From Pseudogymnoascus verrucosus (taxonomy: Eukaryota): DNA of 64,000 nt. Shown here piece by piece: positions 3,001 through 64,000 of the stretch (positions within the stretch are counted from its first letter, which is position 1; the number at the start of each line of letters is the position of its first letter). The stretch is taken from assembly GCA_001662655.1 (NCBI GenBank), contig KV460218.1. One strand, written 5' to 3'. The notes beneath the pieces are model-generated. The model made no database searches. It was not told the DNA's origin and was given only the letters and a program-made list of their open reading frames with translations. A program made the translations under genes and the position numbers.

Positions 3001-3491
3001 CTCGCACTACGTTTCTTCTTTCGTTAACGTCCCCGAAGTTCGCCTTGAGTTGCTTAACGAAGCTAGCCCAAGTGATGAAGATATCCTTGGTGCCTTGGTT
3101 AGCCGTCGTGGTGACTCTTCCGTTAGCCGCTCGGTAGCTCATGTAGTCCGTTAGGTAATTAGCAATCTAGTCGGAGGCGGAGCCCCTTAGGAGGGCCACT
3201 GCCCATAGGACTTGCTGTACTTCAAAGGCGAAGTGCTTAGCGTTGAAGGCCATCTAGAGTTCCGTCTAGATGAGGAAGCTCTTAAGCTTCTTGCGGTCCC
3301 CATTAAAGGTATCTAGGAATGCAATCTTGAGTTTGTCTAAGGGGTGTGGTCCCCCGGGCGCAGGCGTAGTGGTAGGTGACAGGACAGGCTCGACAGCTGC
3401 CTTGCCCTTCGACCCCACGTTGGATGCTGAATCGTTTCTAGCCATGTTGCTTTGTGTATGAGCCGGTACCTCGTAGAAGTGGTGCTCAAAG

Positions 3492-3912
3492 TGTAACGCT
3501 AGGTCTTAAACTATAAGACTCATAGAGGTTTCGTTACGTTGGTTNNNNNNNNNNNNNNNNNNNNNNNNNNNNNNNNNNNNNNNNNNNNNNNNNNATCTAC
3601 TTATATAGTGGCGTCGTGCTAAAGGGGATAGTTAGGATAGTTGGATAGCCCCAACTATCCCAACTATCTAACTATCTATCACGTGAGCTATTCTCTTTCT
3701 AGTACCTGTGATTCTTCTGGTACCTGTCTATCTAGTACCTCCTAATCCTTAGGTGCCTAACTGTCTTCCGGTACCTGTAAACCTAGGTACTAGACACCCA
3801 TTAGGTGCCTAATAACTAACCCTGCCTTAAAGGTGGTTAAATCGCTAACATTCTCATTACTACTATAACTAGTGTGTCGGCGAAACTGTAGCCGTAAACG
3901 CTAGCCGTAACA
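3492..3912 (-). repeat. 5' LTR of family A copy 1 (contains the assembly gap)
   Basis: TGTAAC...GTAACA termini. The first ~50 bp and the TATA region match the LTRs at 11205 and 17758. Confidence 0.9.
3545..3594. other. Assembly gap (50 N)
   Basis: Run of N. Confidence 1.
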
Positions 3913-9824: not shown

Positions 9825-10348
9825 CTAGGTCTTAAACTATAAGACTTATAAAGGTTTTGTTACGTTAGTTTACTTAATAGAGGAGGTAGGGGATTAGATA
9901 CTAAAGGCTTTTATAAAACACATTATAGTATATAACAAAATACTATATTAAGTTAAGTATAAAGCTCCTATCTAAGAAATAACTATCTACTTATATAGTA
10001 GTGTTATGCTAAAGGGAATAATTAGAATAGTAGACTCTCTAACTATTCTTACTATTCCTACTAATCTAATTATATGTGTGTTCTATAAGAGGTGCTATAC
10101 TTATTAAAGGTACTAATTCCTATAGGTGCCTTTCTAAGGAGGCACCTTACTCTATATAGGTGCCTTTTCTAATAGGCACCTCTCCCTTACTAGGTACCTT
10201 CTAAGAAAGGTACCTTTTCCTAAAGGTGCCCTTATTAACTAAGCTACCTATAATCTCTACGTCTATTTCCTACTACTAATTAGCTATAAGCTATTTTACC
10301 TTATTACTCTATCTTATAGTATATAGGTTATATGTTTTAGCTATAACA
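9825..10348 (-). repeat. Family A LTR lacking its first ~7 bp, directly abutting the family B LTR
   Basis: Near-identical to 11205-11733 and 17758-18286; ends CTATAACA; no polypurine tract follows. Confidence 0.9.
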
Positions 10349-11204
10349 TGCCTCTAGACCTTCTTCTAAATACTATATATAACTATAACTATAGAAAATA
10401 GACCTTACTATTAAGTAATGTCCTATGTTTAGTAATAAAGAGTGTAAACTAATAGTAACTCTTAATAATTATAATGTCTAGAATTTAGTATATACTATAA
10501 GGGTCTATATTAATTCTAAGAAGTTAGGCTTATATAATAAAGTCCTAGAGACCTTTAAATTAAAATATATTAAATAAAAGTAATATACCTATTAGTACTT
10601 TGTTTTGTATATATAATTCTATAACATAATTTACATACAAGTTGCCTATATAAGCAAGTTGCCTACTAAAACACTAAAATTAACTATTACTTCCTACTAC
10701 TATACTACTACCCTACATAATAACCCTTATTCAATTGTAATTAATTCCTAGCGCCTATTGTATATATAGGTATTATGTCTAATCTTCTTACATTAGCTAT
10801 AACGCTTCTATTAACCCTTAGAGCCTACCTGCTAACTACTCTTACTTACTACCTCTATATAGACTTAAGCATTAACCTCTACACTCTAAAGGATATCCTC
10901 TACATCTTATATAGAGAGGCTTCCCCCTTACATTATATACCTCTTACACTTCCTTTCCCTCCTCTTTTTCTGTTTATTTGCTGCTTATAGAGCCTTAACT
11001 TCTACCTTTAGTAAAATAGTAGAATGTATTATAACCTAAGCTCCTTTAGCAAGCTAGCTTAGTACGTTAGTAATTAAGCTAGGAGAGCTATTCTAATACT
11101 ATATAATGTAGTTCCTAACGTACTCTATTTAAAAGTCAAGCTCCCTTATAGTTTAAGGAGTCTTTAAAGTCTAATTATTACTCTTAACTATAGGAGGAGT
11201 TAGA

Positions 11205-14200
11205 TGTAATACTAGGTCTTAAACTATAAGACTTATAGAGGTTTTATTACATTAGTTTACTTAATAGAGGAGGTAGGGGATTAGACATAAAGGCTTTTAT
11301 AAAACACGTTATAGTATATAACAAATACTATATTAAGTTAAGTATAAAGCTCCTATCTAAGGAATAACTATCTACTTATATAGTAGCGTTATGCTAAAGG
11401 GAATAGTTAGAATAGTAGACTCTCTAACTATTCTTACTATTCCTACTAATCTAATTACATATGTGTTCTATAAGAGGTGCTATACTTATTATAGGTGCTA
11501 ATTCCTATAGGTGCCTTTCTAAGGAAGCACCTTACTCTATATAGGTGCCTTTCCTAATAGGCATCTCTCTTTTGCTAGGTACCTTCTAAGAAAGGTACCT
11601 TTTCCTAAAGGTGCCCTTATTAACTAAGCTACCTATAATCTTTATGTCTATTTCCTACTACTAATTAGCTATAAGCTATTTTACCTTATTACTCTATCTT
11701 ATAGCATATAGGTTGTATGTTTTAGCTATAACACTAGGTCCTCTCCCTTAAGGCCTAGTCCTATAAGCCTTACTAACTAAGAGTCCTACTAGCCTACTTA
11801 AGCATAGTAGGTCCCCTATATTTATAGGGTAGGTAAGGCTACAACTATGTCTTCCTCTAAACACTTGAAAATTAAAGAACGCAAACTACTTACTAACTAC
11901 ATAACCTATAAAGGGGTTAAAATGCCTCCCTATTCCTATTATAAGAAACGAGGTCTCTACTACCTTGCTTCCACTTCCTCTAAACGATGTAATAAATATG
12001 TTTATATAAATTCCTACAACTATAACGTCTCTAGCCCTTCTACTAGCAACTAGCAGTTGCTATAGAAAGAAGAAGATTATCTTTACCTTAAAACTTATAT
12101 AACCTATAAAGCTATAGTAACTACTATAGCGTGTCTTAACTGCCTTAAGTAACAGTAGGACCTCCTTAAGACCTAAGGTGCTAAGATGCTTTATTATAGC
12201 TTAAAGACCCTAGACGAGCTAAAGGAGGTAGAGGAACGTAAACAGCATAAGGCTAAAGCCTACGCTTACCTTGCTAGCCTTTCTACTACTAACCCTAAGG
12301 GCGTTGCTTCTAAGCACAACTACCTATCTACCCTTTCCCTTAGGTTCTTTAATTGCTAGGGTGTTAACAGTAGAACTCTACTAGCAACTCTAGGCAGCTA
12401 AGGTTTCCCCTTAACTCCTATAAGTTGTCTATAGGTTTATAACCTTTCTATTTTATTAAAAACTCTTCTTAGCGTCCTACTAACCTCTTGTCTAAGATTG
12501 CCTTAACCTTATATTTAATAGTTTCATTCTTAGGTTAAAGTTTAGTGTCTGTTGTAATTAGGGCGTCCCCTCTTACTAGTTCTAATAATGAAATATAAAA
12601 CACTAAGTAGAGTTTAGAGTTCTTAGGTAGCTATAGCTTATAATTAACTAAGCTAACTTTCTCTAATATCTTAAATAGTCCTAATTTCTTAAAGTCTAAC
12701 TTTGTACTTAGTCGTTTTGTTTTAATGTGTTTCTAGAGTAGGTATACTTTATCCCCCTCCTTAAAGGTAGGTTCTATACTACGCTTCCTATTTACATATA
12801 TAGTAGATCGTTTATTTAAGAACTAGATGTCCATTATAAGTTGTTTCTAGAAGGAGAGTATCTTTAATACTTCTAACGTTCCTTCCTTAGAACGAAATTT
12901 ATCTAGTCTTAGCATCTTATATACCTCTAGTTGCTATCTATTGTTAGTAAAGAATAGTAAGACTTTTGTTACCTCTAATAATGCTAAGTTGTATACAAAT
13001 TCTGCTAAATGTAAGTACTAAACCTAATTGTCCTATTTAGTGTTAACATAGCTTTATAAATATACTTCTAACGTCTAGTTAGTTTGTTCTATTTGTCTAT
13101 CTATTTATAGATAAAAAGCTATAGATAGCTTATAGTTTGTTCTAAGCTGCACTATAACTGTCTACTAGAATTTAGATGTAAAGAGCTTGTCTTAATTTAA
13201 AATTATCTTGTCTAGTAGTCTATATGCTATAACGATAACTTTTAGAAAGATATATACTAATGCCTTTATGTCTAACGCTTCCCTAAACAGTGTAAAGTGT
13301 GCTTCCTTTATAAGTTAGCAGTTAGAGACTATAATAGAGTCTGCTATAAATCCTGTCATTAGTTCTTTTAATAGTAGTAACTTAATAATAAAGTTAATTG
13401 CTATTAAGGACTATGCTTGTCCTAGTGTTAGTAGTGACTTTAAAAGTCTATATAGTGCATGTCTATTTGCTTTTAACTTCTAGTAAATGTTACATCTTAA
13501 CATAACTGTTTCTACCTACTTCCTTAGTCCTAGGAAGTAGTAGTATTATGCGATTTGTTTAAAGGTTCGTGTTACTCCTTAATAACTATGTGCTAGCAAC
13601 GAGTGTTGTTCTTATACTAGTAGGCGTCTTATTTAACTTAGGATATATACTAATCCTTTAAATTAGATTAGCCCTTATTCGTTAATAGAGAAGTTTCCTT
13701 TAACTTTATTTAGGGTTCACTTTGCTATTTCGTCTATTGTATAAGCGTTCTTAAGTCTCTGCTTAAGTTCTATATCTTTTATAATGGCAATTATAGCTAG
13801 TAATTTGTTATATTACATTCCTATGTCTATTCTCCTTAATATTGCTCTAGGTCTTTCTTCCTTTAGGCTAACGTAGTTAGTCCTTCTACTAAGAGCATCT
13901 ACTCTTATATTCTTAGAGCCCTTATAATAGGTTATTATAAAGTTGTAGGCTATAAGGGTTTCTGCCTAGCAGACTTGTCTATAGTTTAGAACCTTAGTTA
14001 TAGTAAAGTATATAAGGTTCTTATAATCTATCTATACCTATATAGGGTAGGTAGATCCCTTAAGATATACTTGCTACTGTTTAAAGGCAACAATAATAGC
14101 TAGTAGCTCCTTATTGTAGATATTATAGTTAAGTTCTATAGGTAATAGTTTCCTAGAGTAGTATGTAATTGGTTTAAACTTACTGTTCTTGTCTAGCTAA

Positions 14201-17200
14201 TTTAGACATGCTCTAATTATAAAGTCTAAAGAGTCTATCTTAAGGATAATCTTCCTTATAGGGTTAAATGTAGCAAGGATAGGTGCCTCTATAAACTTTA
14301 TCTTAAGTTCCTAGAAGGTAGCCTTTACCTTGTTTGTTTAGTTAAACGTAAGACCTTTCCTAGTAAGCTCTATAAGTAGTTAAGCTACCTTAGAATATCC
14401 TATAATAAACTAGTAGTAGAAGTTAGCAAAGCTTAAGAAGGCTTACACTTCTTTAACTATAGTTAGCGTTAGCTATTCTAACACTACTATAACCTTTACT
14501 TAGTCTATCTTAATACTGTGCGTTCTAATAATGTAACCTAAGAATTTAACTTAGTTCTTATAGAACTTACACTTTTCTAGCTTTAATAGTAGGTTGTATT
14601 CTTTTAGCTTCTAAAGGACAAGTTTAATATACTAGGCATATTTGTCCTCGTTTACTAAGTATACTAGTATATTGTCTAAGTAAACAATTGTAAATATGTC
14701 TAGATATTTGTATAAAGTATCATTTATTAAGCGTTATATAGATATAGGGGCGTTAGTTAGCCTAAAGGGTATAACTTAATATTTAAATAGGCTATAGTAG
14801 GTATAGAATGCTGTTTTCTACTCCTTGCTGTTAGCTATCTAGATTAGGTTGTATACACTATATAGGTCTAGCTTAGTAAAGATCTTAGCTCCTTAGAATC
14901 TATTATATAACTTATTAATTAATAGTAAGGCGTATTAATCCTTTATCGTTATATTGTTTAATGCTTAATAGTCTATATAGGGTCGTTTACTCCTATCTTT
15001 CTTAAGGACCTATAACATTAGGCTTCCTATAGGAGATTTAGATAGTCTAATAAATCCTTTTTTAAGGTTATTGTTAATATACTCCTTTAGTAGTTTTAAC
15101 TCATCTACTAACATCTAGTATATTAGTTTAAATAGTAGACTCTTTCCTTCTTCTAAAGGTATTATGTAATCCTATAGTTAGTGCTTAAGAAGCGCCTTAT
15201 TCTTAGGGCCTTCCTAGAATAGCTACTTATATTCCTTATACTCTACTAGTATACTTGTTAGTAAGGGTGCCTAGGCTAGGTTACTAGGCTCTATAGAGGT
15301 TGCATATACCTTACGTTAGCCCTAAGAGGGTTTCTCTTATTATAGTGTGTCCGTTTATTGTTTATATACACATTAGCTCATTATAACTTTCTTGTTCTAC
15401 TAGTTGATCTAGGGGTTGTGTTTCTTAAGCTATAGTATACTAAGGATACATATATAATTATCTATATATAATGTTAAATTAGATTGTTTCCCTATGTCTA
15501 CATAGCATAACTATTTCTAATAGGACTGTTTTGTAGGTTACTATCCCCTTATTAGTTAAGATAGGCTCTCTATCTATAACTATTAGTAGGTAAGGATTAG
15601 TTTTTAATTATGTCTTAAAACCTTACGTTTCTACTACTTTCTTCGTTATAAAGTTGCCTATTGCTCCTAAGTTAATTATTGCTTAGAGGTGTTGCTGTTA
15701 TATCTTAGTAACTATATATAGCTATATACTGCCTTTTATAGCACATAGCTGTTTCGTCCTAGGCCTATTCTTATTGCTTATTAGTAGCCTACTGTTAAGG
15801 ACTCCTAGTTTTTTAACTTATCTAAGGAATAATAGTAATGTTCATCATCCTCTATAGGCAGTCCTTAGGAAGATTGTCTTCCCTATCCCTCTACTTTATC
15901 TAGCAGGTGTAGGTATTTCTTATATACCTATTGTTATTGCTTCTTTAAAGGTAGTTCTCCTTTAGACTAGCTTTGTCTAAGGGCATTAATTTAGTCTATA
16001 TCTATAAAGTAGACCTAAGGTGCAATTTTTAGAAATAATTAATACTAGTTCTTTTTTTATAGGTAACTCTTATAGTTATTGTACTTATAGTGTTCCTAGA
16101 ATATATATAGGTGCTAGGGATAATTAATCCTTAATGCATCTAATTTTGTTAATTCCTATTCCTCTTTTGCCTTACCTATAAGCTTAGATTTCTCTATAGT
16201 TATATATAACCTTTCTATATCCCTATTAGTAGGTTTATAGTTTATAGCAGCTTAGTCTACTTGTAGCTCCTAGGGTTTAGGTCCCTAAGTGTTTTCCTAT
16301 TGTTCGTCTTATACGTTATATTCTATAAGCTTGTATTTTAACTAAATAGTAGCTTCCTTAGCAGTGTAGTTTGCTCCTTAGGGTTCCCTCCCTTATAGGT
16401 ATCTAGGGCAACACCTTATAGTACAAACTATAACTTCCTAGTCTTGTCTAGTGCCTATCTATCCTAATAGGGGTAGTGGCATAGGAATCGCTTAGAGGGT
16501 CCCTTTATAAAGCATGCTCTGCCTATAGATATCTACTACTCCTAGTAGATTCTCCTTAAAGGTAATCCCCTTTACATCTTCTTTAAACTCTTTTAGCCTA
16601 AGTTTCTAGGATTCTATTAATCCCTTGTTTAGGCGTTTGTTTTCAACTTTAAGCAATGCATTAAACTTGTTAAGATCCTCGTTGTCTAAGCTCTGCCCTT
16701 CTAGGGTGCTAACACTATTAACTCCCTAATTAGGTTTGTCTATAAACATAGCGTTTAGTTATTTCTTAAACTTATACCCCTCGTTCCCCTTCCTTAGTTG
16801 CTTATAGTCCCTAGCTAGGTAGCTAGGCTTACTATAATTAAAGTACAATTGCTCCTTAATTTGCTTTTCCTTTTAGGGGTTGTAGGATCTCTCGTTCTTA
16901 AACGTAGCATTAAGTTCTATAGGATCTAACCATTAGTTGTCTTGCTAGTAGTTGTCCTATCTTCTACCTTCATTCTTTTAGTAGCTGTTATACTTCTTTA
17001 GTTTGTTATAGTTCCTTTTTTCTTTCTAGAACTTATATAGCTAGTTGTTGATTTAGACTATGTGTTTAATTAGCAACACTATATCTATAAGCTGATTCTC
17101 TATTTATATAAGTTCTAGGTAGACATAACTTTTTAAGCTATAGCGATAGTAACTAATAAGCGCTTCTATATCCTAGTAAGTTTAATTACTATACCTCTAG

Positions 17201-18286
17201 AACTTAGTAGAGTACATTAACACACTTCCTGTCTGTTTCAACAGATATAGGTAGTCTTCTATAGTCTTAACTTTGTTGATGTTGCTAAATATACATTATA
17301 TTTCCTTCTTAAACCCCTTCTATTTACTAAAGATAACGTTAGTTGTAGCCATTATGCTTATTATGTCTTTATAGGCAAAATAGTCTTTAAGGAATAGTTT
17401 AATCCATTAGAGAGCCTCTCCTCTTAAGTAGGAGGCTGTCTATATAGTATAGCTTTTAGTAGTTAGGAACTTGTTATTATTAAAGTGTTAGTATAGTTTA
17501 ACCTATAGTAGGAATACCTTAAGTTCCTTTCTATTACTAGAGAACGTGTTAGGGAGCTTAACTTAAAGAGTCTCCTTAAGTTCTAACATAATAGGTAGTG
17601 TATCTAGCATCTCCTTATTCTTAAGTAGAATGTTCTATAATAACTATAGGGTTAGTGTATTAGGTTGTTTAATAACACTCCCTCTTAGGCTTAGAATAGT
17701 TAGAGCTATAGTTGCTTTACTATATAAGCTAGTACCTTATAGAAGTAGTGCTTAAAGTGTAACGCTAGGTCTTAACTATAAGACTTATAGAGGTTTTATT
17801 ATGTTAGGTTACTTAATAGAGGAGGTAGGGGATTAGACACTAAAGGCTTTTATAAAACACATTATAGTATATAACAAATACTATATTAAGTTAAGCACGA
17901 AGCTCCTATCTAAGAACTATCTATCTACTTATATAGTAGCGTTATACTAAAGGGAATAGTTAGAATAGTAGACTCTCTAACTATTCTTACTATTCCTACT
18001 AATCTAATTACATATGTGTCCTATAAGAGGTGCTATACTTATTACAAGTACTGATTCCTATAGGTGCCTTTTTAAGGAGGTACCTTGCTCTATATAGGTG
18101 CCTTTCCTAATAGGCACCTCTCTTTTACTAGGTACCTTCTAAGAAAGGTACCTTTTCCTAAAGGTGCCCTTATTAACTAAGCTACCTATAATCTCTATGT
18201 CCATTTCCTACTACTAATTAGCTATAAGCTATTTTACCTTATTACTTTATCCTATAGTATATAGGTTGTATGTTTTAGCTATAACA
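11205..18286 (-). mobile_element. Full-length (7082 bp) chromovirus-type Ty3/Gypsy element, family A copy 2, heavily RIP-mutated
   Basis: Two ~529-bp LTRs (11205-11733, 17758-18286). 5-bp TSD TTAGA at 11200-11204 and 18287-18291. Polypurine tract near 11740-11751. pol is collinear with copy 1. Chromodomain remnant at ~12370-12515 (YKVKAILDKRLVGR*EEFLIK*KGYKPIDNL*E). Confidence 0.95.
11847..12401 (+). pseudogene. RIP-damaged antisense ORF (~184 codons) of the retrotransposon; six-Cys cluster plus coiled coil
   Basis: Single frame from ATG 11847 to TAA 12401, with internal stops all of RIP type (TAG/TAA). Tyr codons fall at the spacing expected of Cys (TGY>TAY). The downstream part is helical and charged (LKTLDELKEVEERK). 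Confidence 0.65.
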
Positions 18287-19557
18287 TTAGAGTCCTTAAC
18301 TATAGATTTAAGTAAGAGAGGACATTCTACAGCTTATATAGAACTAGTCTTATAGCTTAGAACCTACTCTTAATGTTCTACTCTATAAATGTAGCTTTAA
18401 AGGCTTCTTTAAATGTAGAGAGGAACTTAAGCTTTATAATGTAGTTTAGCTAGTTCTATATAAAGGTTTTAATCTACTTTCTATATAAAAGCTTTAGTAG
18501 TGTAAAGTAGCTTACATTAAGAGGCTAAAGAATATATAATAAGTATAGTGGTATATAGAGGGTAATTATCTTCTATTCTATATAGTAGTATTAAAATTAA
18601 GTAGAGAGGTAGCTCTTATATCTGTTAAGAATAAGAAGGTAATAGGTTCTAACTATATAAGCATTTGTATACTAATTGAAATGTTAAATCTACTTATACC
18701 TAATTAAATTTAAAGTCTACCTATTCTTACTTAGTGTAATTACCTAATTGTCTAGTAATCTTAAGTCCTTATACTAAGTAGAGAGGTAATTCTATACCTT
18801 AAAAATAATAAATAGTAAGAGTGCCTATTTATACAAATTAACACCTTAGATAATTAACACCTACTCTCTATTTCTAAGCTATATAGTCTTTAGATAGCTC
18901 TTTACTTCTAAGCTTATAACTACCTTTATAGTAGTAATAACTCCTATTATAAAACCTGCTTTATTAAAGTTGTAGATATCCTGCTCTAAGATTCTATATT
19001 TTACAACTATGTTTTGTATAAGAGTAAACTACCCTTAAATTATCTTAAGATCTTTACATTTTGCTTGTTTATAATTATACTTCTAACTAAACTTTGCTTT
19101 AATTTCTATATAACGCTTTATAAAGTTAGTAGTCTAGTTCTTCCTAATAGGGCTTACACCTTATTTAGAAAGTAAAAGGTCTACTATTTCTTATATACCT
19201 TATAGCTAAGGTAGAAATCTATGTAAATCTAGGTTAAGGATGTACTAAATAAGAGCTAACTCTTTATATAGAGTTAACTTCTATAAGTTAGGGATAGAGT
19301 TGTAAGAGGAAGCTATTCCTTAAATTCGTTAACATAGTGTCGTTTAAGGGATATTATATAATGCTACAGCTTCTTAAACACTTTAAAATTAGCCTTGTCT
19401 AATTGTACTAATAGCAAATAGTATTCTACCCTCCTAATTAGAGGATTTGGCTTATGTTAGTTATAGTATATTAACTGTAATTACGTTAATACATTCTAGT
19501 GTTTTAGTAGGCTACTTACCTATATAGGCCACTTGCTTATAAAATACGTTAGCTATA

Positions 19558-19804
19558 TATAAGGATATAGGGCACTATATTATAAGTAGTTATATATAGA
19601 AGTATAAGTTAGATAGGAGTTAGTATAATCTTATAGGTCTACTATAAAGGATATAAAAAAGATAAAGAGGGAACCCCTTAAGTCTATTCCTCTAAGTATC
19701 TAAAATAGCTCTAACTTAGTTAGCTAGCCCCTAGCTCCCTATATATAACCACCTTAGCTCTAAGTCTAGTCCTAAGAATATATTAAGGATAGGGCATCCT
19801 TATA
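19558..19804 (-). repeat. Family B-related LTR, isolated and RIP-mutated
   Basis: TATAAGGAT...ATCCTTATA termini (RIP form of TGTAAGGAT...ATCCTTACA). The first ~115 bp match 9527-9645. No clean TSD. Confidence 0.75.
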
Positions 19805-20275
19805 GGTTCTAATATATATAGTTATATAGGAAACTTAATATATAGATAAGGGGTTATAAGCTAATATAGTATATTATAGTATAATAGGAAAGAAAACATA
19901 TACTTTTATTATAAATTCTTCTTATATATTATAGAAGCCTAGAAATAGGAGCGCCTCTAGAAGAAGAGCCTATCTTAGCTTACTAAATTAGGCCTTCTAA
20001 TTCCTCTAGAGTTAGAAGACCTAATTACTAGCCTAGAAGCTAAGCCTAAGAGCTAGTATAATAGTGCTAGTGTAGGTAGGAGTAGGCGTGGGAGTAGGCG
20101 TGGGAGTGGGCGTGGGAGTGAGAGTGGGAATGAGGAAGTGATAATTTCGTAGAATTGAATTTATAAGTACTTTTGTATACAATTTACTATGGTTAGGTAC
20201 TTACGGTCGCAATTTGAACGCACGCAACTTGCTTCTACTTTTAAGCGAGTGCGCGCAACTTGCTTCCACCTACGA
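19805..20275. mobile_element. Probable right end of another degenerate DNA transposon
   Basis: RIP-like AT-rich sequence ending in a doubled CGCAACTTGCTTC motif (20223-20267). This resembles the doubled CAAGTTGC in the Fot1-like TIR at 10624. Confidence 0.4.
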
Positions 20276-20468: not shown

Positions 20469-23400
20469 CTAGTACCTGAAGTTGACCTTGCTAGTCCTCC
20501 TCTCACGGATCCAGTCCCTCCTCTTCTTCATCTTATCCTCCTTCGGCACAGTTGCACGCCCCAAGCTCCAAAGCTGCGAGCTCTCCAGCGCCGGCAATTC
20601 CTCCAGATCGACCGTCTTGGATTTCCGCCCCGTAGCAGGTGAAGGCGCGCTGATCGGCTCGGCAAAAAGCGTAATTGGTGCTGAACGCTGCGCCGGAATG
20701 CGCGCAGATGGTTCCCAAAGACCCTTAGACGTAGAAACGGGTTTGGGTTGCGCTGGAGCCGGCGGCGTCCATAACCCGGTGTTGATAACTTGAGGGACCT
20801 CGGCCGGCTGGACCGGTGACTCTATGGCGGAGTCGTGTAGCCAGCTACGCACGGTGGCGGTAGCAGCCACGGACTCGGTGACCGACCACAGGGCAGTAGA
20901 ATTGAGTTTTGGCAGCTCCGTAGTTATCTTTGCCGACGACTTCTTGAATGCTGGGCTAATGGTGGGAGTAATACTCGTTATTATCATTTTTGGATTTTGT
21001 TGTTCTGATTGAGAGCCGCGAGGCTGCCAGAGGTCTTTAGACGAAGAAAAAGAAGTGGGGCTCGATGGCGATTGTGCGGGAGGCGCCCACATGATGGGAA
21101 GAGATTGAGTCACAACCAACTGAACCTGAGAAACCGGGGGAGCTTCGTGTAGCCAGCTACGAACCGTAGCCGTGGCAGCCGCCGGCTGCGTCACCGACCA
21201 CAGGCTTGTAGAATCGAGTTTTGGCAACTCCGAGGAAATCTTTACCGACGACCTCTTGAATGCTGGGTCAGCGACGGGAGTAATGCTTGCTACCTTACTT
21301 GCGCCCTGTGATTTTTGTACAGACCAGAGAGGTGTAGACTTCTCAGATGGTCTTATAAGAGAAATTGCAGTCGACCAAAGGCTCTTCTTGGTTGGGCTTT
21401 GAACCGCCTTGACGGGCTTTTGTGCTGATGCTCGCAAAGCTTCCTCGAGCGCATGCGCCCACATTTCCTTTGTAGCCCCTAGTTTCTTTGCCGGGATGGC
21501 AGATGCTTTGATGGCCTCCTTCAAGGCGGCATCCCATTCTGCTGGTGTTGCAGCGTTCATCGGCCTCGATCGTGGCTTTGTCTTCTTTATTTCCTTGGCC
21601 GAAAACGATTCCACCAGCATGAATGGTACATCCATAGCAATAGCATTTCGCTCGCTTTGAAGGCTGGAAGCCTTCGTGCTGACAGTCCTCACTGAGTAAT
21701 CGTCCGACTCCGTTACCATTCCTGGAGAAGTATTCCCCGAGGAAGTGCCAACGGACGGGCTCGTGGGGCGGACAGTAGACTCAGAGATCCAGTCGAACGT
21801 GAAAACAGACACGCGACGGCTATCAGACCACAGCTTGGTTGAGGAGATTATTGGTAGAGGAGCCGTGTTTGGGCGGGGTTTGGTGAACATGGCAATAGCT
21901 GCAGGCTCTTGGGTGGTAACATCTCTGACCTTGGAGGCATCGAGGGTGAAAAGCCCGCTCGAAACGGCAGCTACCTTAGTCTTGGGCGGTGTCCAAAGGT
22001 AAGACGTCGCCTTGGAAGCGGAAGCCTTTAGAGCCTGCTTCTTCTTGAAGGCAACGGTGTCTCTTGGGCCGCTTGGAAGGTGCGATTTCCCATCCCACCA
22101 AGCAGATCTACCATCCGGACGAATGTCTGTAATGAATGCTTCTGGCTCGACTGAAGAAGTGAGAGGTGCTGGGAATTGCATCTGGGCTCCACCAAGCGGG
22201 GTAAGAGCAAGTACCTCTGGATCACTATCCATAGGGCTCTTTGGGCCCGGGCTCTTAGGATTCGGGCTCAAAGGCATAATAGGCATGAATCTAACAACAG
22301 GCGCCCTGCCAGCTGGGACAACCTCGTCGTCAGAGTCGTCGTAGTCTTCAATAATTCTAATCTGTGGCAGCAGGCTATGTCTGCTGGGGACATCGGACGA
22401 ATCTAGAAGATTGGCGATTTCCCACAGGGTAGAGTCATCGAATCCATCGTCGCTGGCCTCGTCTCTGGGAGTGTCGGCATCGAGCGAGGTAGAGTCAGAG
22501 TGGTAATCTTGGTCGTCGTAGTCATCGAAAAATGACGACGAGTACTCCTCGTTAAAATCGTTGGATCCGAGTGTGTTTGGGATCATGAGACGTGGGAGGT
22601 TAGATATAGTAGGCAACGCGGGTTGGTACACCGCCTGGTCACTCTTTTCCCCCCACGGGAACTGGAATATGCCTAAAGTATCCCTTTTGTGTGGTAGTGG
22701 GCTAGGGCTTTCGACTAGTGACAAAGCAATTAGTATGTAAAAATAATAAGAGGATGACGATCAAAAGAAAATATGTACATACCGATATCAGGTAAAAATG
22801 TCATTGCTCTGGACTTCCGAATGGGCTTTTGAGTCTTTGGGCGGGTTACGATACTTGCCGGTCGTGTGTTCTTAGAGCGCCAGAGTCCAGTTGTCGGACG
22901 GACACGGCTAGGAGTTGGCATGTGCCACATATACAAGCTTTCAAGATAAAGAGGCTCGATGGTTCGTCGTTGTGCTGGTCTGACACATAAGGCGGCAGGC
23001 TCGGACGAGGATGGGCGGACCTGGATAGGCTGTTGAGGGAGAGTCCACATGAGGCCAACTACCTGTACGGCCTTTGGAGAGCAAGGCTTCCAGAGATGCG
23101 GTCTACCTGTACGTTGATTCGGACATGGGATTGCAACTACAGCACAGCCCCCAGCAACTACTGCTCTAATAGAAGCTTGCTTAGCCGTGACAACCTTTGC
23201 CGTTGAGAGCGAATTTGAGAAAGATGGCGCATTATTAGCATATGACTTTTGAGCCTCCTCCAACTTGTCTTTCCACAACCCTGGCTTTGCGATCTCCCCA
23301 TTGCGCGTGCTGGTGACAGTAACAATATTCTGGGCAGCCTCCACAATACTCCTAACTCGAGCCTTTCTAGCTTCCTTGATGGAAACAGTATTGATTGAAG

Positions 23401-26400
23401 TGATAGAAGCAACAGAGTTGCGCCTCGTAGTCCAGGGAGTGAAATCCTCGGAACTCTTGGAGTCGCGATCAATGTTCTCATGAAGCCGTTGCCATCTGTT
23501 CTCCTGCTCGCCAACCTCCTTTTCCATCTCAGCAAGAAGATCATCTCGCTGGTCCTGGGTAGCGTCGCCAAGGCTAGACGACCTATCGCGAATGAAAGGT
23601 AGCATATCAGGCTCCTCGAGCTGCTTTAACTGGGCCTGGATTTCTTGCAAGGCCCGGTTAGGTGTATCTATCACCACAGCTGGTAGCGGCTTTTGAGCAA
23701 ACGAGCCTTTATTCTTTGCCGTTCGTAGAATAAGAGGGGTAGGTGGCACTGATTTAGAACGGGAGTGGTTCTGCCTAGTCGAAAACGCTGGGATTTGGTC
23801 ACCGATACGTGTGTGCCAAGTGTCGGTGGTGGGGGTTTTGACGGTGGGAGTCTTGAAGCCTTCGGTTCCGAAAGTCTGCGATGAGTCGTGGAGGAACGAG
23901 GTGGGGCCAGCTCTGGTCGTAGGGGCTTCGGTAGGGTCATAACCCATCATTATCGACATGAACTTGTGGTCTTTAAGGAGCGAATCCGCGGTGCTTGAGG
24001 ATGAATCACGTTGGGCGGTGTAACTCTTTGGGAGAGCAGGTAATGGCTCATGCAACCAGTCGGCATCTTTGACCACATGGCTGTCGTCGGAGCTATCGGT
24101 CATTTCTGTAGACGAGGAGTACATTTTCTGAGACGGGATATTAGACTTTCTGATTTGAACAACATCATTGCCTACGTCAGGAACAGTAGCATTGAGGGCG
24201 CTTCTGTATGTATCTCGTTGTATGAGTTGCTGTGTATGCTTTTTCGGTGAAAGGTTGCCCTTCGTTTCGACAGGTAATATGGAAATGATAGTTGATCGCC
24301 TTGACGATCTACGGCTGGCGAACTCGTCTTTGCTTATGGCTTCAGGCGCATCGGCGGTAGACATAGACAACACAGACACGCTGCTAGGTAGCGACGGAAC
24401 AGATGATCGGCGTTGCGATTTGAATGTACCAACTGGGGGCATTGGGAAGAGCATCGAAACCTTTTCGTCATTTGTCATGTTGTGAATATGATCCTTCAAC
24501 AATCCACGCATCTGAGCAAGATCCGCAGGTGGCGCGGGTAGCGGCGGCAGCAAGGTTGGGCTTCCAATGCGAGGAGCTCTCAATACCGATGAGCTAGATC
24601 TGTTGCGTCGATGGTTTGGCGAAGGCTCACTTGGAAAGAACACACCCTCCGAGTCTCTAGTCTTCTTGTATGGGCGCGCTCGATGCAAGATTGAAGGTTT
24701 GGCGGCGAGACCGACGGATTTGGACCTGTCCATGGGAGCTTTAGGTTTCTTTGAAAAGTTCGGCACCTCATTGATAATTGAGTCAACCAGTCCGGGGTCA
24801 TCATAGACGATGTCCTTCATGAACATGATCGTTTGTCGCTTTTCGGGCACAGGTTGGAAGTCCTTAATCTTTGGATTCGACGGTAAAGTATTGGTAATAG
24901 CAGGCTTGTAGTATTGCCTCTTCTCGTCAATATCAAACCCATTCAGCTGGCGTGGAGATCTCCTCCGTACGTCTTTACGACCGGGAGACAGGCTTGAAGA
25001 ACTAGAACTTCCATTCGAGCTCACGGAGCTTTGAGAAGTCTGGTATTTCAAGTCTTGATAGTTTCCAGAGGGCTTCTTGCGGACCGTGCTGATGCTTCTC
25101 TTCAATGCTTCGGAAGGATCCAAACCGGTCGGTGGTGCAGGGGCGGGGCGAGTGGCCACGAGAATGCGTTGAGTGGCCGCCTCTTCACGCCGAGCTCGTT
25201 CGTTAGCTGCTGCGGTAGCAAGATCCACGGTTTGCATTCTTAAGGGTGCGCCCGAAGGTTCATCCGTGTTAATCAATATAGGCTGAGAAATCGCGAGTTT
25301 CCTCGGGCCTGACTGTGCGGATTGCTTGGAGCGGCCGAAGAAAGACCGCTTCTGTTTCGCATCCGGGTCCTCGCCATCCCAAACAGGTCTCGATCTTTGA
25401 ATAGACGGAATGACAGGAAGTGGGGCTGATATGGTAGTAGTCACGCCGCCCATAATATTGGTGGAAGTTCCAAGTGAGCGCCTTTCGGTGGGGGATTCTG
25501 CTGACAAAACTCCGGTGGCAATATCGACAGATCGAGTATTGACCATTATATTCCCGAAATTGGACTGTGGCCCCTCCCGATAACTTTGTAGCTGTGGCGA
25601 ATCACCGGGGGTGCTCGATGGGTTCACGACAAACAGTCGTCCATTGGTAGCCCCTCTAGTACTAGACATTGGAGAGCCATCGCCAGTACTGGTCGAGTTG
25701 AATCGGGGGCGTGGCGGGGCGATGAACGGTGACTGTGATTCCGGAGTCCCACCTTCTGCTTCGCGCGGCGATAGTAATGCTTCGGACCATATCGCTGCGA
25801 TAGTCAAGAGAATACCAAGGCCGGTGGCGGGAATGGCAGTGCGTAGCAATAGTATGATGGAGGAAAGCCCAAGGTGCAGAGTCACGCTCGTTCCAGTCCA
25901 AATGGCAAATCCAGCTGTGAAGAGAGCGAGGGCTTTGCCTTGTTCTTTGTTCGATGTCGACTGTATTCCGTTACTGCTGCCGCAGAACCCCAAGGTGAAG
26001 AGTCGTATCGCCACGAGGCCGAGGATGATGGCATCTAGACCGATAACAAGAATCGATACTGGCAGTGCCTCGGAACGTGGCACGCACAATGGTGCATACT
26101 GTGCCCTTGTAAATACAACAAACACAATACCACTAACCGCCCTCGCCCCGATTAGAGACCCGAGACCATATTTCTCGGCCGACGACTTGGACACATGCGC
26201 AACAGTCCAGAGGAGAAAGGATCCGCTCAGCGTTCGTGCGGCTTGGTCGAAGAAGGTCGATGTCGCGATAGTCCCTTGACATATATTCGAGCTCCTGGAG
26301 GGTATCAAGAAATTAAGAAATCCAATCTGCGCCCACAGAGCAGAGGATAGAATGAACGTTATGAGGACCAGCCTCCGACGGTCTTGGAATATAGTTGAAC

Positions 26401-26553
26401 CATGACCGCTTAGATAAATAACAAATGAAGAGACTGCGGTTTGCAATAGGATACCACTGGACGATGGTTAGTAGTGGAGAGACAAACCCAATTTGGAGAT
26501 ACCGACAATGAAAAGGCAGCAGACAAGGTCTGAATGCTGTCTGAGATAGCCAT
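20469..26553 (-). CDS. Large (~1988 aa) hypothetical protein with N-terminal multi-pass membrane region and long S/P-rich tail with repeated LW motifs; 3 exons
   Basis: ATG at 26553. Introns 26506-26457 and 22782-22715 (GT..AG with branch motifs) join the 1238-aa and 751-aa ORFs in frame. About 5-6 hydrophobic segments lie in the first ~240 aa. Confidence 0.85.
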
Positions 26554-57874: not shown

Positions 57875-58956
57875 CATAAACGCGCATTCCACCGACGTCA
57901 TCGCATTCTTTACATCGGCCACCACCACCGCGCATCACCGCGCATCTCATCCCTTTCCCCTCCCGTACAGACCTGATCTAGCTTCATATTCACTAAGCTA
58001 TCATATATCCCCTCCCGTACCGACCGCGCGCGACTCATAACAACCAACGGTGGTGGTTGTCGTTACATCATCATAGTCCAAGTCAAGTTAAGTCAAGTCA
58101 CGAGGAAATAATACCCAGACCGACGCCGGGAGGGGGGGAGGAGGGAGAGGGGAGAGAAGAGGGAGTACGTAAGGGGCGTCTAGCTGACTAATCACCACAC
58201 ACACCTTTTCTAATCTCTCTTTTCACACACCCCTGGTTCCCTGTCCACACACCACACCCTACCCTGCGTGGCTGCAAACAAACCAAACACCCACGCAACG
58301 CCACGGGCCGCGCTCAGACCGAGTCGAATGAGTCGCTTACTTAGGTAAGTTAAGTTAACCCGTTCTAGATGCGGTGCCGTTTGTCTGTTTCACACGTGGG
58401 GCGGCTAGGTGGGATAGGGTGGGTGGGAGATATAATGAGGAGGGAAGGAGTACTACTGTATAATAAGGTATGCTGGAAAGTATAATACAGGGCTGTGATG
58501 GAGCTGTGATGGAGCTGTGGATAGACCTTGACCTAGACCAGGGCGTAGGATGAGATGGATGGGAAAGGGGAGACAGATAGAAAGGGGAAGGGGGTAACGG
58601 CATGGGATGGTAGTAGATGGGTTAATTTCGCAAAACTAAACTGTGGATTCACTACATACCGAGGCGCGTGCTTGCTTTCTTGCTTGCTTGTTTGCTTGCG
58701 CGTCGTGTCGTCGTGTCGTCGCCGAGGGATAGGGGGACGTGAGCTTAATAGGCCGAGATGGCATGGTAGACACATGCAAGAAAGACAGGAGATGAAGGAG
58801 CAAGGTGCGCACGTACTCCACGGTAGGAATCAAGCTATTGCCATGAGCCTTGGAATCTACAGCTGGTCAGTAACGGCGTTATTATCAGTGGGAGGAGTTC
58901 AATGACAACGTTGTTATCAATGGGAGGAGACGGGGTGGGTGGGGAATTGAGTATAC

Positions 58957-59330
58957 AGAAGAAATAAATATCACAAGCATAATAACACACGAATCGAGTC
59001 TATGCTATGAGCTTTGTCTTGGTCTTGGTCTATAGGTGTAGGGTCTACGAGTGGTTTGGTAACAACATTATCAGCTGAGAGAGGACGGGCTGGGATTCAG
59101 TAGACGGGAGAAATAAAATATCACGGCGTAATAGGATACAAATCGATGTTTATGCCTTGAGCCTCGTTCCTGGTCTGTAGCCAGAGTCATCGATCAAGCT
59201 CCACGCCATGAGCTTCGTTCCTGTTTTATAGGCGTTTTGTCTACGAGTGGTTTAATAACAACATTTTATCAGCGAGAGAGAGCACGGGCAGGAAATTGAC
59301 TATATCAGAAGAAATAAATATCACAGCACA
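58957..59330. repeat. Degenerate ~150-200 bp tandem duplication downstream of YHM2
   Basis: AGAAATAAA(A)TATCAC three times and GTCTACGAGTGGTTT..TAACAACATT twice. Confidence 0.75.
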
Positions 59331-59573
59331 GCAACATACCACCACCTCGCACAGAAGAAAAAAAGGTATAGGGCACAACATCTCATATCGATTAACACGC
59401 CCATCTGTGTAACTACAACTTATAATAAAAGGAAGAAAAAACAACTGAAGTCAATCCCGTTCCGTTCCGTCTATTTCTTTTGCGCGCGCTAGAACCTATT
59501 CGTGACACAATTCATCTTGCGATGGTAATGCCTCCCATGATGGATATGTTTGGTATCCCCCAAAAAACGCCGT

Positions 59574-60823
59574 CTAATGCTTCGCTGTGACCGAGTCGCC
59601 GGTGAGTTTCTCGACGTAGCTCTTGGCCCTGTGGAAATAGTCAGCAAACGTGTCCGCAGACAATAAAGGGCGGTCGGTGATGGACAAAATGCCACCACCC
59701 AGGAACGGAGAAAGGAGATACTCACATATCACCCATAGCAACCATACAAATCGTCTGCCAAACGCCCAACCCAATCCTAGGCACCACCCCGCGATAAAGC
59801 CCCTTAATCCCATTCTGCGAGTAAATATAACTGAACGTCTTCCCCACCGTCAAGTTCTTCGGCCTATTCGGATCCGCAGTCTTACTCTGCATCTCCACGC
59901 GAATAACCTCAATCGGCTGATTCCACGCCGACAACCCTCCACCCAGCCCACTAGCAAGGATCTTCTCCCACGCTCCCAGAGCAGCGCCCTCCTCCTTCCC
60001 AGTCGCCTTGCGGATCCCGGACTCGGCAAGACGCGAGAGTCCGAAGCGGGACCCCCAGTTCGTCATCTGACGGATCGCGACAGCGTTCACGCCCTTGTTG
60101 ATACCCTTGATACCCTCCTTGCGGTAGATATCCGCGAAGGTGGCAAAAGTCGACTGGGGAGCGACGCCCGTGGCGGCGAGCTTGGTCTTGGTGATCTCAA
60201 CGGTCTTCATGCAGGTGCAGAAGCCCATGGTGGCGTAGGCCTGCGCGACGCCACCGGCGACACCGCCGCTGATGCCGGCGGTGAAGTCGCCGGCGCCGAA
60301 GGTGCGGGCGTAGTATTCGGCTTCGGAGGCGACGAAGAGGAGGACTGCGCCTTTGGTGGAGGCTTCGATCCAGGCCCAGGGAATGAGACCTTGGTAGACT
60401 GGAGAGAGGAAAGGTTAGTTACGGGTTTTTTGGGGGGTGTGTGGGGTTTGTGGGGGAATCCGGGGATGGGATGGGGGACTAACAGCCAAAGACACCGCCA
60501 CGGCCCCAGATGCGGCCCAGGGCGCCGGCGAAGCTGTCACCGCGGTTGGCGGCCATGGTGGTCTTGGTGACCTCCAATGGCTGGCCGAGAGTTGTCACCT
60601 AATGCAATTCGTCAGTCGTGTGCTCCTATCATCATCCATCTCCAAATTGCCCAATCCCGATCCTCGGCATGGGAAATCGGGACAAATAGGCATGTGGACA
60701 CGCGGGTATGTGGTATATGCTCACCTCGAAAAGATTCAGCCCTGCTCCGAGGAGCAGGTTGCTGAACTTGACGGGCTTCTTCTCCAGCTTGGGAGGCTGA
60801 GTCTCGACGACGGCGACGGACAT
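59574..60823 (-). CDS. YHM2: Mitochondrial citrate/oxoglutarate carrier, multi-exon
   Basis: KKPVKFSNLLLGAGLNLFE|VTTLGQPLEV, YQGLIPWAWIEASTKGAVLLF, MGFCTCMKTVEIT, AIRQMTNWGSRFG and WNQPIEVIRVEMQS. Confidence 0.95.
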
Positions 60824-61711
60824 GCTGGCGGATCTGATGCGTTTAGGGGGTCCTGACCAAGGAAGACGGGGTGCTTCGTTGCGGAGGGTGAGGAGGAGAT
60901 GTCGGTAACGCGGAGAGAACGACGCTGGGCTGGATTCGGGGTAAGTAAGTGTGGGGACCGGAGGAAGGAGCGGAGAGTGTGCGAGAAGGAGTTTTTGTGA
61001 GGTACTGGTGGTGTTGGGGGGTGAAGGTGCGAGGGATGGATTGGATGCTCTTACAGCTATAACCGAGTAGCGCTTGATAACAGACAGGGAAGCCAAGAGT
61101 TTCGGGTCCCGATGGGGGATATCGGAAGGTTGATGCGGGGTTCGGAAGATTGATTGAGCGATGGGTTTCTCGATTGAGATGAGTGATGAAATGCACCGAG
61201 ATATTGATGGATAAGGATAATATATTGTTTTTTAAAGAAACGAGGGGGGGAAATGTCTAGAGATAAATGGAAGGGCGGGCGCGTTTTTGGCGGGCTGCGG
61301 CTGCGGTTACGGTCTGGACGACCGATTTTCAGGGGATCACGGGAAATCGGTGAGGTGGTGCAGGGGGCTAGCGGGTGCGGAGATCGCAGGTATTGGGGTG
61401 CGTGGGCGTGTTCGCGTAATTCAACGGCTCAACAGTCGGTAAAAAAGTTGGGGATGGGGACGGGAAATGGCTTGTGAATTTTGGGGAGGTTGGAGCCTGA
61501 GGCAGGAAGTGGTGAGGTGGGGAGTTCAACGACATTACAACAGTATAACTAACGGCAAAACAGTATTACTATATGCGCTGGGAATACTGCTGGTTGATAT
61601 CTTCTATCATCACTTCAGGATTTAAGAGGGTGTTGATCCACGTACCTTGATATTGCTTGACAAATTTAAATGCTACAGTTACAGCCAGCGATTTTATTAC
61701 ATCTCCGAAAG

Positions 61712-62003
61712 TCGGCGGTTGATTATATTCGTGATTATTTATTAATAATCATAAGAAGCATGATTATTATTCCAGAGGCAAGTAATCATAATCATGACTA
61801 CCTATGGTTTTCAAAAACCAATAATCATCATCGTTAATATTCCTGGTTTTCAAAAGCACATAATCATAATAATAACTATTCGTGTTTTCGAAAGCTAATA
61901 ACCATCATCATCAATACCTATGCTTACAGATATATATTCATGGTTATATAAGATTTGAGTATTTAAATATCCATGATTATGATGATTATTCTTGCCAACC
62001 CCG
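61712..62003. mobile_element. MITE-like non-autonomous element (~290 bp)
   Basis: Flanking CCGAAAG direct repeat (61705, 62004), imperfect inverted ends, many ATAATCAT/ATGATTAT motifs and three GTTTTC(A/G)AAA-containing subrepeats. Confidence 0.5.
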
Positions 62004-62183
62004 CCGAAAGAAGGCCTGCAGTTTTTAAATCTGTTATTTAATCATACCTACTTTGACCACCTTAATTTCTTGCCGTGACATGGAAGCTGAAATGATAATC
62101 AGCCATCCTCCCACCACCGCCCTCAAACCATCTACTTTCACACAGAACATCTATATTTAGTCCCCGACATACACATGACTATC

Positions 62184-62249
62184 AAATACGACCATAGACT
62201 CAAGAGAATTGGGCATCCCGTCCGCTCTGCCATACACAAGCTTGTAATC
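62184..62249 (+). rRNA. 5' half (~66 nt) of a dispersed 5S rRNA gene; truncated or split
   Basis: AAATACGACCATAGACTCAAGAGAATTGGGCATCCCGTCCGCTCTGCCATACACAAGCTTGTAATC matches the ascomycete 5S 5' half. TATA-like box ~30 nt upstream. The 3' half (TTAGTAGTTGGG...) was not seen in the window. Confidence 0.85.
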
Positions 62250-63847
62250 TACTCGCTCTATACTCTCAATCGTGCCAATAGGCATAGCGTGGAATTTGGG
62301 CCCCTTGCCGCTTTGAAGGGTAAAGCGAAGGGTGAGCAGGGTGAGCAGTGCGTGAGCAGGGTGAGCATAATGGGGCGAAGTGAACTTTTCGTGTCATTTT
62401 CGCGTTACTTTCGCGTTAGACTGAAGTTTAGCCCTTAGTTTAAAACACCATGTAAGGCATTGCTCTCTTAACCTTTCCCAAGGTGATTCGTCATTGACCG
62501 AGCCACGAAAGTAGAGACTCTACGCTTAGCTCGCTCTCACAAAAGTTGTGATCGGCGATTAGCTTGTTGCGGAAGATATTCACAGAGAGGAATAAGAGGC
62601 TTCAAGAATTGAACCTACTTACCGCTTCAAATACAACGAGGGAGACATTTCTTACAAGTCCCCATCAATAGACTCGACAAATCTCGGTCATTCTCCTAGC
62701 CAAGTGTAACTTCACACGCAACAAACCACATCAACGGTCTCTCGATCTGCTGGAATATTGTTATTCCGTAGCCGCTAATGCGTGGCTATCACATCTCATC
62801 ACGAGCGTGAAGAAAACGTGGACTCCAACTATTGGAGCAATTGGAGCCTATGATGAGGAGGTAATACTAGCTATCTCATTACCATGTGGTCCTCTGTTCG
62901 TTGGAGCTACGCCATCGTATCACCACCTATGCCGCGCCAACAACGCTCTCTCAAGTCTGACTCGATTCAGTTCTGGGTGGTCTTCATCGAAGAGACTTAG
63001 GTTCCCAGCCCACGGGGAGGTACGAGTCGTCGCAGGCCTACAACGATTAGGCCGTACACTGTAGACATGTGCAATGGACCTAATGACACATGCCTTCGCC
63101 CGCTTCGCTTGGGGGGCGCCGGCGTTGACAGGAGTGCCAGATTTGCCAAAGCGGATAATGCGTAGCGCCTAAATCCCCTAGTTTATACTAGCGGTGCGAA
63201 CCGAAGTCCTACCTTAAGCGGTTACACTCTGCAGGTGCAGCTGAGGGTGGATCGCCGCTGTCGATAAAGTGACTTGCGCAAGTCTCCGCGCGCCTGCCAC
63301 TTGTGGCGTCCTCCTTGTGGTTGGTGTGGTATGATGATTTTGGGGGTTACACAGCAGGAACACGTGCCAGACAACGTCAAAAATCATCGTGGCGAACAAC
63401 AAAATTGAATCTTTTGTTTCTAAGCCTTCCTTCAGCCATCAAGCAGCCTTGCGCCCGCAATCTGATATAGTTGGATTTACCTTCTTGAGCCAGAAAGCAA
63501 GGTTTCGAGGACCAGCTTAATAATCAGATCAAGATTTCCGATCCCGACAATACTCAACGATCGAAGGCCAGCCTTAAAGTATCTATGAGCCTATTCCAGC
63601 TGGTGATCCGAAGCATCAAAATAGGAAAAGATTAATGATAGTTGGCTAGTCTCGCTAAGAAGAAGAGCTGTCTGGCACCATTGCCCACGAGTCTGTTAGT
63701 ATGTAGGATTCGCAAACCCTTATTAATGGAAACACTGCCAAAGGCCCTATCACTAACTATCCCAACATGTTCGCTGTCCCGAAGTCAACTAGCTAAGAAT
63801 ATCAAGGACTAGCCCTTGCTAGACAGCCAGATTGTCCAGTCGTTAGG

Positions 63848-64000
63848 ATGAACCACAATGGCCCAGATAATTATGTTAGAAACCACGCATTGCAGGACTA
63901 CCAGATGCACTTGATGTTGCTTGAGCAGCAAAAGAAAAGAAGATTATTAATGGCAAAAGAAGCTCTTAAAGAGCAAGATACTGCGCTACAGACAATTACT
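63848..64000 (+). CDS. Partial ORF carrying the Som1/Flo8-type HALQDYQMxLMLLEQQ motif; runs off the window; true start uncertain
   Basis: Open frame MNHNGPDNYVRNHALQDYQMHLMLLEQQKKRRLLMAKE... Confidence 0.6.
   Translation, partial: MNHNGPDNYVRNHALQDYQMHLMLLEQQKKRRLLMAKEALKEQDTALQTIT

Follow-up and report, generated by a model that had tools for sequence, protein, structure and literature searches.

The window analysed in this study, a 64,000-nt stretch of Pseudogymnoascus verrucosus (assembly GCA_001662655.1, contig KV460218.1), carries near its right end a truncated 5S rRNA gene, followed by a short block of repeat-containing DNA, a non-coding flank and the start of a protein-coding gene (Table 1). 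The genes to the left of the 5S fragment are core genes, namely a P-type ATPase gene, an SREBP-like bHLH/DUF2014 gene and, as the left neighbour, a mitochondrial carrier gene whose product is 99% identical to a Pseudogymnoascus YHM2-type protein. At the other end of the window, Ty3/gypsy retrotransposon fragments (RVT_1, aspartyl protease and gag; 363-3166) are followed by 16 kb (4001-20000) with 29-36% GC and no ORF of 110 aa or more, and the stretch 363-20000 looks like a RIP-type degraded repeat island bordering the core genes. The minus strand at 20472-26467 has two very long ORFs, of 763 and 1245 aa, neither of which matches a Pfam family. The AT-rich spacer upstream of the 5S fragment contains a 39-bp tandem repeat of 2.9 copies (TGGTTTTCAAAAGC...ATTCC; intervals 61805-61916 and 61975-62097), and beside it is a weak C/D-box snoRNA-like match to snR73 (19.6 bits against a gathering score of 37, E 0.95), which is probably due to chance, though the stretch is kept in the relatives.

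Table 1. Features at and around the truncated 5S rRNA gene.
Feature	Position	Strand	Basis and remarks
YHM2-type mitochondrial carrier gene (core gene; one intron between two exon ORFs)	59722..60823	-	Pfam Mito_carr, 6.4e-20
TATA-like box TATATTTA	62152..62159	+	-32 to -25 of the 5S start; read directly
Truncated 5S rRNA gene, nt 1-61	62184..62244	+	nt 2 is A, not C; 3' end is the palindrome CAAGCTTG (nt 54-61)
Whole dispersed block after 5S nt 61, about 170-200 bp	62245..~62431	+	Pieces of relatives; blastn against L003
Variable segment, about 15-18 nt	62245..62262	+	Alignment with L003; sequence differs per subfamily of copies
Conserved 49-nt core CTCTCAATCG...CTTGCCGC	62263..62311	+	48/49 identical to L003
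9-bp tandem repeats AGGGTGAGC, 4.1 copies	62329..62367	+	Tandem Repeats Finder
11-bp tandem repeats TTTCGCGTTAC, 2.9 copies	62387..62418	+	Tandem Repeats Finder; three TYTCGYGTYA units in L003
Non-coding single-copy right flank, about 1.4 kb	62432..63847		Present in 4/4 relatives; no recognisable gene remnant
P0001, start of a gene for a 216-aa coiled-coil protein, running off the window	63848..64000	+	ORF and orthologues

The orthologues of P0001 in other Pseudogymnoascus are 76-85% identical to it, and the protein matched no Pfam family above the cut-off, with only sub-threshold coiled-coil matches. An in-frame TAA at 63794-63796 removes an N-terminal extension of approximately 46 residues that is present in the orthologues; P0002 and P0004 start MQDSQTLINGNTAKG..., and the P0001 of the window would begin at the next ATG (63848). 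None of the 24 ORFs of 62091-64000 matched DUF3435 or another Pfam family above the curated cut-off, and none of the 38 larger ORFs across the window matched DUF3435. The initial annotation of this DNA, which had noted that no captain gene was visible here, was right on this point.

The same annotation had described a 5S 5' half with an upstream TATA-like box, cut at about nt 66 after ...GTAATC. The 5S part is real. When 62150-62252 was searched by cmscan, RF00001 matched 62184-62252 (model positions 1-69 of 120, truncated on the 3' side, 18.5 bits, E 0.067); no Rfam family reached its gathering score anywhere in the 64-kb window, and an untruncated cmscan of 61900-62600 gave no 5S match. Compared with the intact 119-nt 5S gene of the metagenome locus L002, nt 1-61 were identical at 59 of 61 positions without gaps, and blastn aligned 62186-62244 with nt 3-61 of that gene at 58/59 (98.3%, E 1.5e-24). 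The TATA-like box is also present as described, with a putative promoter role, and AT-rich boxes at approximately -30 were found at the intact loci L001, L002 and L004 and at the truncated locus L003.

The position of the cut had to be corrected by approximately 5 nt. Identity to 5S ends after AAGCTTG at nt 61, which is the end of the palindrome. Past AAGCTTG, the window reads TAATCTACTCGC..., whereas the intact gene reads AGATCGGTGGAT...; the letters TAATC at 62245-62249 agree with 5S nt 62-66 at only 3 of 5 positions, and a local alignment of the 60 nt past the break with the 5S 3' half was not significant against shuffled sequences (p 0.99). In the translations of other copies, which are described below, the first codon past CTT starts with G, C or A depending on the copy, and therefore the junction lies after nt 60 or 61. 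No 5S 3' half was found in the window by the Rfam scan and blastn, and neither the block nor any part of 5S occurred a second time in it.

The DNA past the break had been regarded as unrelated DNA containing short repeats. It indeed has no significant similarity to 5S, but it is a conserved dispersed block and not random DNA, and the short repeats were recovered by Tandem Repeats Finder as a 9-bp and an 11-bp array (Table 1). The block opens with the variable segment, which appears in ORF translations as 5-6 residues past HKL that differ between copies (VIYSLY, VIQWID, AYPLDN, QVPLAI, HNHLDS and others). The core that follows is translated as LNRANRHSVE..PLAAL, which is almost invariant in 20 ORF proteins (alignment A3), and the alignment of the relatives' copies drops off at 62311. 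The number of 9-bp repeats differs among family members, with five copies in L003 and indels of the relatives at 62312-62351. The 11-bp repeats are possible candidates for protein-binding repeats. The predicted fold of the block was no better than that of shuffled sequences (z -0.2), a search around the block for target-site duplications and for terminal inverted repeats gave only short repeats at chance level, and no direct repeat of the target was seen in the window. Exact scans with 27 nt of the core gave no matches in genome contigs or in viral contigs. The idea that the block opens with diverged 5S nt 62-80 was also considered and rejected: L003 agreed at 12 of 20 positions in register (TCAGTGGATT against TCGGTGGATT, p 0.24), and the window gave p 0.99. 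The likeness in L003 is only a hint of a recombinase half-site.

The metagenome contigs were scanned with a 27-nt 5S pattern, and six loci (L001-L006) were obtained. The 5S gene was complete at L002, L004, L005 and L006 (71-75 bits) and was cut by the contig end at L001 (50 bits). At the sixth locus, L003, it was truncated as in the window. L003 is an unrelated 19.6-kb metagenome contig, of which 6,091 bp of sequence were covered by our analyses, and it has the same order of parts: 5S nt 1-61 (57/61 against the intact gene), another 15-18 nt, the core (48/49), 9-bp repeats of the GGGTGAGCA type and three TYTCGYGTYA units. By blastn, positions 16-172 of the block matched L003 107-261 with 80% identity over 160 columns. 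The similarity between the window and L003 is confined to approximately 170-200 bp past the 5S head; a homology past 62431 that had been seen by eye was rejected (its score was 22, shuffled sequences averaged 19.8, and 60 of the 300 shuffles scored as high or higher). Past its block, L003 carries a methyltransferase-like ORF broken by a Tc1/mariner-like element and then LysM-like ORFs, and in these 6 kb no DUF3435-like ORF was seen (judged without a Pfam scan) and no 5S 3' half. The Tc1/mariner-like transposon itself (L003 1937-3404) has terminal inverted repeats of 37 bp without a mismatch, contains an open frame of 456 aa and lies inside the methyltransferase-like ORF, 1.6 kb downstream of the truncated 5S gene and its block.

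The plus-frame translation across the junction (87 aa), whose frame is open by chance, was used as a protein probe, and 45 proteins were returned. In 20 of them (all with E < 1e-7, from JGI and ENA contigs), ...YDHRLKRIGHPVRSAIHKL (5S nt ~10-61) was followed by 5-6 variable residues and then by LNRANRHSVE..PLAAL. The intact-5S ORFs of Botrytis and Sclerotinia part from the block-bearing ORFs directly past HKL. A profile of 21 sequences (alignment A3) was then searched against 1.84 billion representatives and matched 427 proteins at E up to 0.001; among the 150 matches listed, 34 continue from the 5S part into the block, and the other 116 are confined to the 5S part. These 34 matches and five others from the 87-aa probe search, which are absent from the representatives, give at least 39 distinct block-bearing ORF translations, nearly all with different upstream peptides, and they therefore represent different loci. 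The window, L003 and the 39 translations thus combine one fixed internal 5S break (nt 60/61) with one block behind differing upstream flanks. The taxonomic spread of the block is drawn from unnamed metagenome proteins. A K-to-E change in the 5S head is common to L003, P0157, P0160, P0161 and P0162. One further metagenome ORF, P0199, reads through two intact 5S genes in tandem, approximately 60 residues apart, so that closely spaced 5S pairs occur in some relatives.

Assemblies of four relatives (X2, X3, X4 and X19) were compared with the window over 58000-64000. The summed contig depth rose from 15-54 in single-copy DNA to 1900-5900 in bins over 62020-62421, and much of this rise is due to the 5S head. 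Pieces from other loci aligned from the 5S start past the break, covering 62186-62431 in X2 (record 11) and X4 (record 25), and 62186-62352, 62186-62311 and 62180-62295 in further pieces. The depth at 62312-62351 was 86-591, compared with 15-54 for single-copy DNA, and the ratio of the two gives a rough estimate of 5-14 block copies per relative genome.

Both flanks of the repeat were present as single-copy DNA in all four relatives. The left-flank contigs ended at 62201, 62228, 62235 and 62215, and the right-flank contigs started at 62269, 62242, 62266 and 62269. The contigs therefore break only within the repeat (62201-62269), and 62236-62241 is found in no flank contig; this missing coverage is a repeat-induced assembly break and not an absence. 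Because no listed contig bridges the repeat, collinearity across it is likely but unproven. Counting mismatches only, the identities of X2, X3 and X4 to the window were 99.1%, 97.9% and 98.2% in the left flank and 99.8%, 96.8% and 96.8% in the right flank. Since the divergence of the two flanks runs parallel in these relatives (97.9-99.1% and 96.8-99.8%), we considered the insertion to be old. X2 is without 277 bp (62762-63038), and X3 and X4 have approximately 62 extra bases at 63279, which are ordinary indels of the non-coding right flank.

It had been proposed that an empty site with an intact 5S gene next to YHM2 might be found in related isolates. None was seen in the four relatives, which have both flanks, and no intact 5S gene stood beside the left flank, though no contig bridges the junction. 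According to the initial annotation, a truncated 5S gene shared with relatives and followed by collinear DNA, with no 3' half or DUF3435 gene, would mean an ordinary 5S pseudogene. Apart from the unbridged junction, and as far as position 64000, this is nearly what the relatives have, but the word ordinary does not fit. A one-off pseudogene would have lost its 3' part through a chance deletion or rearrangement, and the DNA behind the cut would be unique and unrelated. Pseudogenes of 5S that are truncated at the 3' end are reported to be common in filamentous ascomycetes (PMC5555474, in the passage citing Rooney and Ward 2005), and the junction is common to the relatives, as such an origin would allow. 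Against this, the 170-200 bp downstream of the truncation are not unique but belong to a dispersed family whose members all join 5S at one position, as seen in L003, in 39 translations and in the several copies that each relative genome has. The recurrence of the block excludes a one-off truncation, and we gave this explanation almost no credence.

We also weighed a complete giant Starship that would run from 62245 past the end of the window, where its captain and the 5S 3' half would then lie. In favour of this, the junction recurs at one specific site, and 5S-targeting Starships are established. The block could be the captain-distal end, so that a captain would not be expected within 1.75 kb, and P0001 in the right flank is a fast-evolving, genus-restricted coiled-coil protein. 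However, both flanks are single copy and have diverged together in all four relatives, and 62245-64000 contains neither a captain nor a remnant of one. In addition, the YHM2 protein and the P0001 orthologue occur on contigs of the same size in two more assemblies, and these contigs are only 28,306 and 23,223 bp long, so any element would have to be fixed at the site across species. In two other assemblies the two genes are on different contigs (3,731 and 18,802 bp; 82,973 and 115,159 bp), and such a split could reflect either a true separation of the genes or an assembly that broke at the repeat. Starships are known for presence/absence polymorphism with a clean empty site, which was not observed among the four relatives. 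Of the Starship-type boundary that had been suggested for this locus, the recurrent, position-specific 5S junction stands, whereas a DUF3435 gene and the 3' half were not found in the window and an empty site was not found in the four relatives. A giant element starting at about 62250 is not shown by these results, and we considered a complete one distinctly unlikely.

The explanation that we preferred, and to which we gave about an even chance, is that the break is the junction of a 5S-site-specific integrating element, whose family has repeatedly integrated into real 5S genes and split them. According to this proposal, 62184-62244 would be what is left of a once normal, dispersed 5S gene that had a TATA box of its own. 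The site-specific integration of a mobile element would have split this gene after nt 60/61, where the palindrome ends. The block would be the conserved terminal region of the element family, equivalent to an attL-type junction and made up of the subfamily-specific 15-18 nt, the 49-nt core and the 9-bp and 11-bp repeats, which may bind the recombinase. To our knowledge, no kind of fungal element other than the Starship type integrates inside 5S genes, and for this reason a tyrosine-recombinase (Starship-type) element would be the most likely type. The insertion at this locus would predate the split of several sister species and would have been inherited vertically since then. The locus is thus probably an old relic junction, in which the body of the element has shrunk, been lost or become fixed. 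What was observed directly is where the 5S gene breaks off, that the block recurs at nt 60/61 and that the relatives have both flanks, whereas mechanism, element type and relic status are inferred.

Several results favour integration. The break is sharp and common to the copies, with 59/61 identity to 5S up to nt 61 and no significant 5S similarity past it. The same junction recurs in L003, in 20 ORF proteins and in 34 of the 150 listed profile matches, and the genomes of the relatives have several block copies, whose alignments all begin at the 5S start. The heads resemble real former 5S genes, with a TATA-like box at approximately -30 in both the window and L003. The target ends in a palindrome, and Starships are documented at several internal 5S sites, which by analogy would suit this mechanism. 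In the part of the starfish supplement covered, an approximate count of identifier occurrences gives roughly 20-70 captain-type 'tyr' rows for each Pseudogymnoascus genome, and a search of this text for the junction and 5S motifs gave no matches or unrelated TIR strings.

Other results count against integration. The element itself is unobserved, as the window has no recombinase gene, 5S 3' half, direct repeat or second end, and in L003, too, the 6 kb past the block contain neither a DUF3435-like ORF nor a 5S 3' half. No empty site was seen in the four relatives, and the fold of the block is not unusual. The similarity that ends after approximately 170-200 bp also fits a short, self-contained repeat unit, and the K-to-E change shared by several heads could mean that head and block were copied together and not joined repeatedly.

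These last points lead to another explanation, in which a founder 5S gene was fused to foreign DNA and the resulting unit (nt 1-61 with a body of about 200-300 nt and short-repeat tails) was copied whole, either by retroposition of a transcript that begins at 5S +1, as in a 5S-derived SINE-like element, or by duplication at the DNA level. All copies begin at the 5S start and have no upstream sequence in common, the unit is approximately 250-300 nt long with simple tandem repeats, the window and L003 are unrelated past the block, and in both of these copies, the two for which DNA is at hand, there is no recombinase gene and no 5S 3' half. The five block-bearing copies that share the K-to-E change belong to different subfamilies, as copying of the whole unit would allow. 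On the other hand, the 61-nt head is without the 5S internal control region downstream of box A. Work on Neurospora has shown that fungal 5S genes need box C. Both copies with DNA carry a TATA-like box at approximately -30, which a retrocopy would not carry, and the head is nearer to intact 5S (59/61) than the variable segments are to each other, which is odd for a unit evolving as one piece. The sole nearby candidate for a target-site duplication (62171-62180 against 63086-63095, 9/10) is unconvincing, being among 17 repeat families at chance level, and the window and L003 have neither a T-run nor an A-rich tail in common. A 5S-derived SINE is marked by a complete pol III internal promoter, target-site duplications and a defined 3' tail, and here the head stops at nt 61. 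We regarded such a self-copying unit as possible but rather unlikely.

We tentatively suggest, as a minority possibility, that 5S nt 1-61 and the block mark an uncatalogued 5S-specific mobile element family of Leotiomycete fungi, perhaps with a new target position at nt 60/61, and perhaps a small non-autonomous integrating element or a 5S-headed retroposon rather than a Starship. In that event, some of the 3'-truncated 5S 'pseudogenes' that have long been known to be in excess in filamentous fungi would be footprints of site-specific elements and not the result of decay. Should the block prove to be the terminus of an element that targets 5S, the 49-nt core beside 5S nt 61 would be a simple sequence tag, which could locate every insertion of the family in Pseudogymnoascus and related Leotiomycetes, to which the bat white-nose pathogen belongs. 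The target position could then be defined, and many fungal 'truncated 5S pseudogenes' could be checked as element footprints. Nothing suggests recent mobility or notable cargo at the locus studied here.

Several known systems can be compared with this junction. The 5S-targeting Starships include the Voyager, Arwing and Enterprise families, for example Osiris of Aspergillus fumigatus, and the cited sections of these papers describe direct repeats of 6-16 bp and hosts among Pezizomycotina whose genomes are rich in DUF3435 captains (PMC11162782; PMC9156397; PMC12153272). At least five distinct internal 5S sites, some of them palindromic, are described for Starships in the cited part of PMC11162782. 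The junction here is similar in its fixed internal position in dispersed 5S genes, in the splitting of the gene and, as at some Starship sites, in the palindromic target. In contrast, the site of Voyager is 20 bp from the 5S start (PMC9156397, cited section) and that of Arwing has the core CCCG/GGGC (PMC11162782, cited section), whereas the site here is at nt 60/61 and ends in CAAGCTTG. Unlike documented Starships, the locus revealed no captain, cargo boundary, direct repeat or empty site.

SINE3 of zebrafish is a 5S-derived SINE. Similarly, Cassandra TRIM retroelements carry 5S sequence (PMC12486564, cited part). These systems and the copies described here would have in common a mobile unit that starts with or includes 5S-derived sequence, followed by an unrelated body. 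However, SINE3 and Cassandra keep the 5S internal promoter, whereas only nt 1-61 are kept here, with an upstream TATA-like box in both copies with DNA. A target-site duplication and a tail, which are found in 5S-derived SINEs, were not found here.

The 5S pseudogenes of Aspergillus nidulans carry a shared 3' block. In filamentous ascomycetes, pseudogenes make up 18-83% of 5S sequences (PMC5555474, in the passage quoting Rooney and Ward 2005). Like the 3'-truncated pseudogenes of these fungi, the copies in this study keep the 5' part, have the 3' part replaced and are numerous. In contrast to those pseudogenes as described in that passage of PMC5555474, the replacement here is one conserved family at one position, and therefore a specific mechanism is called for.
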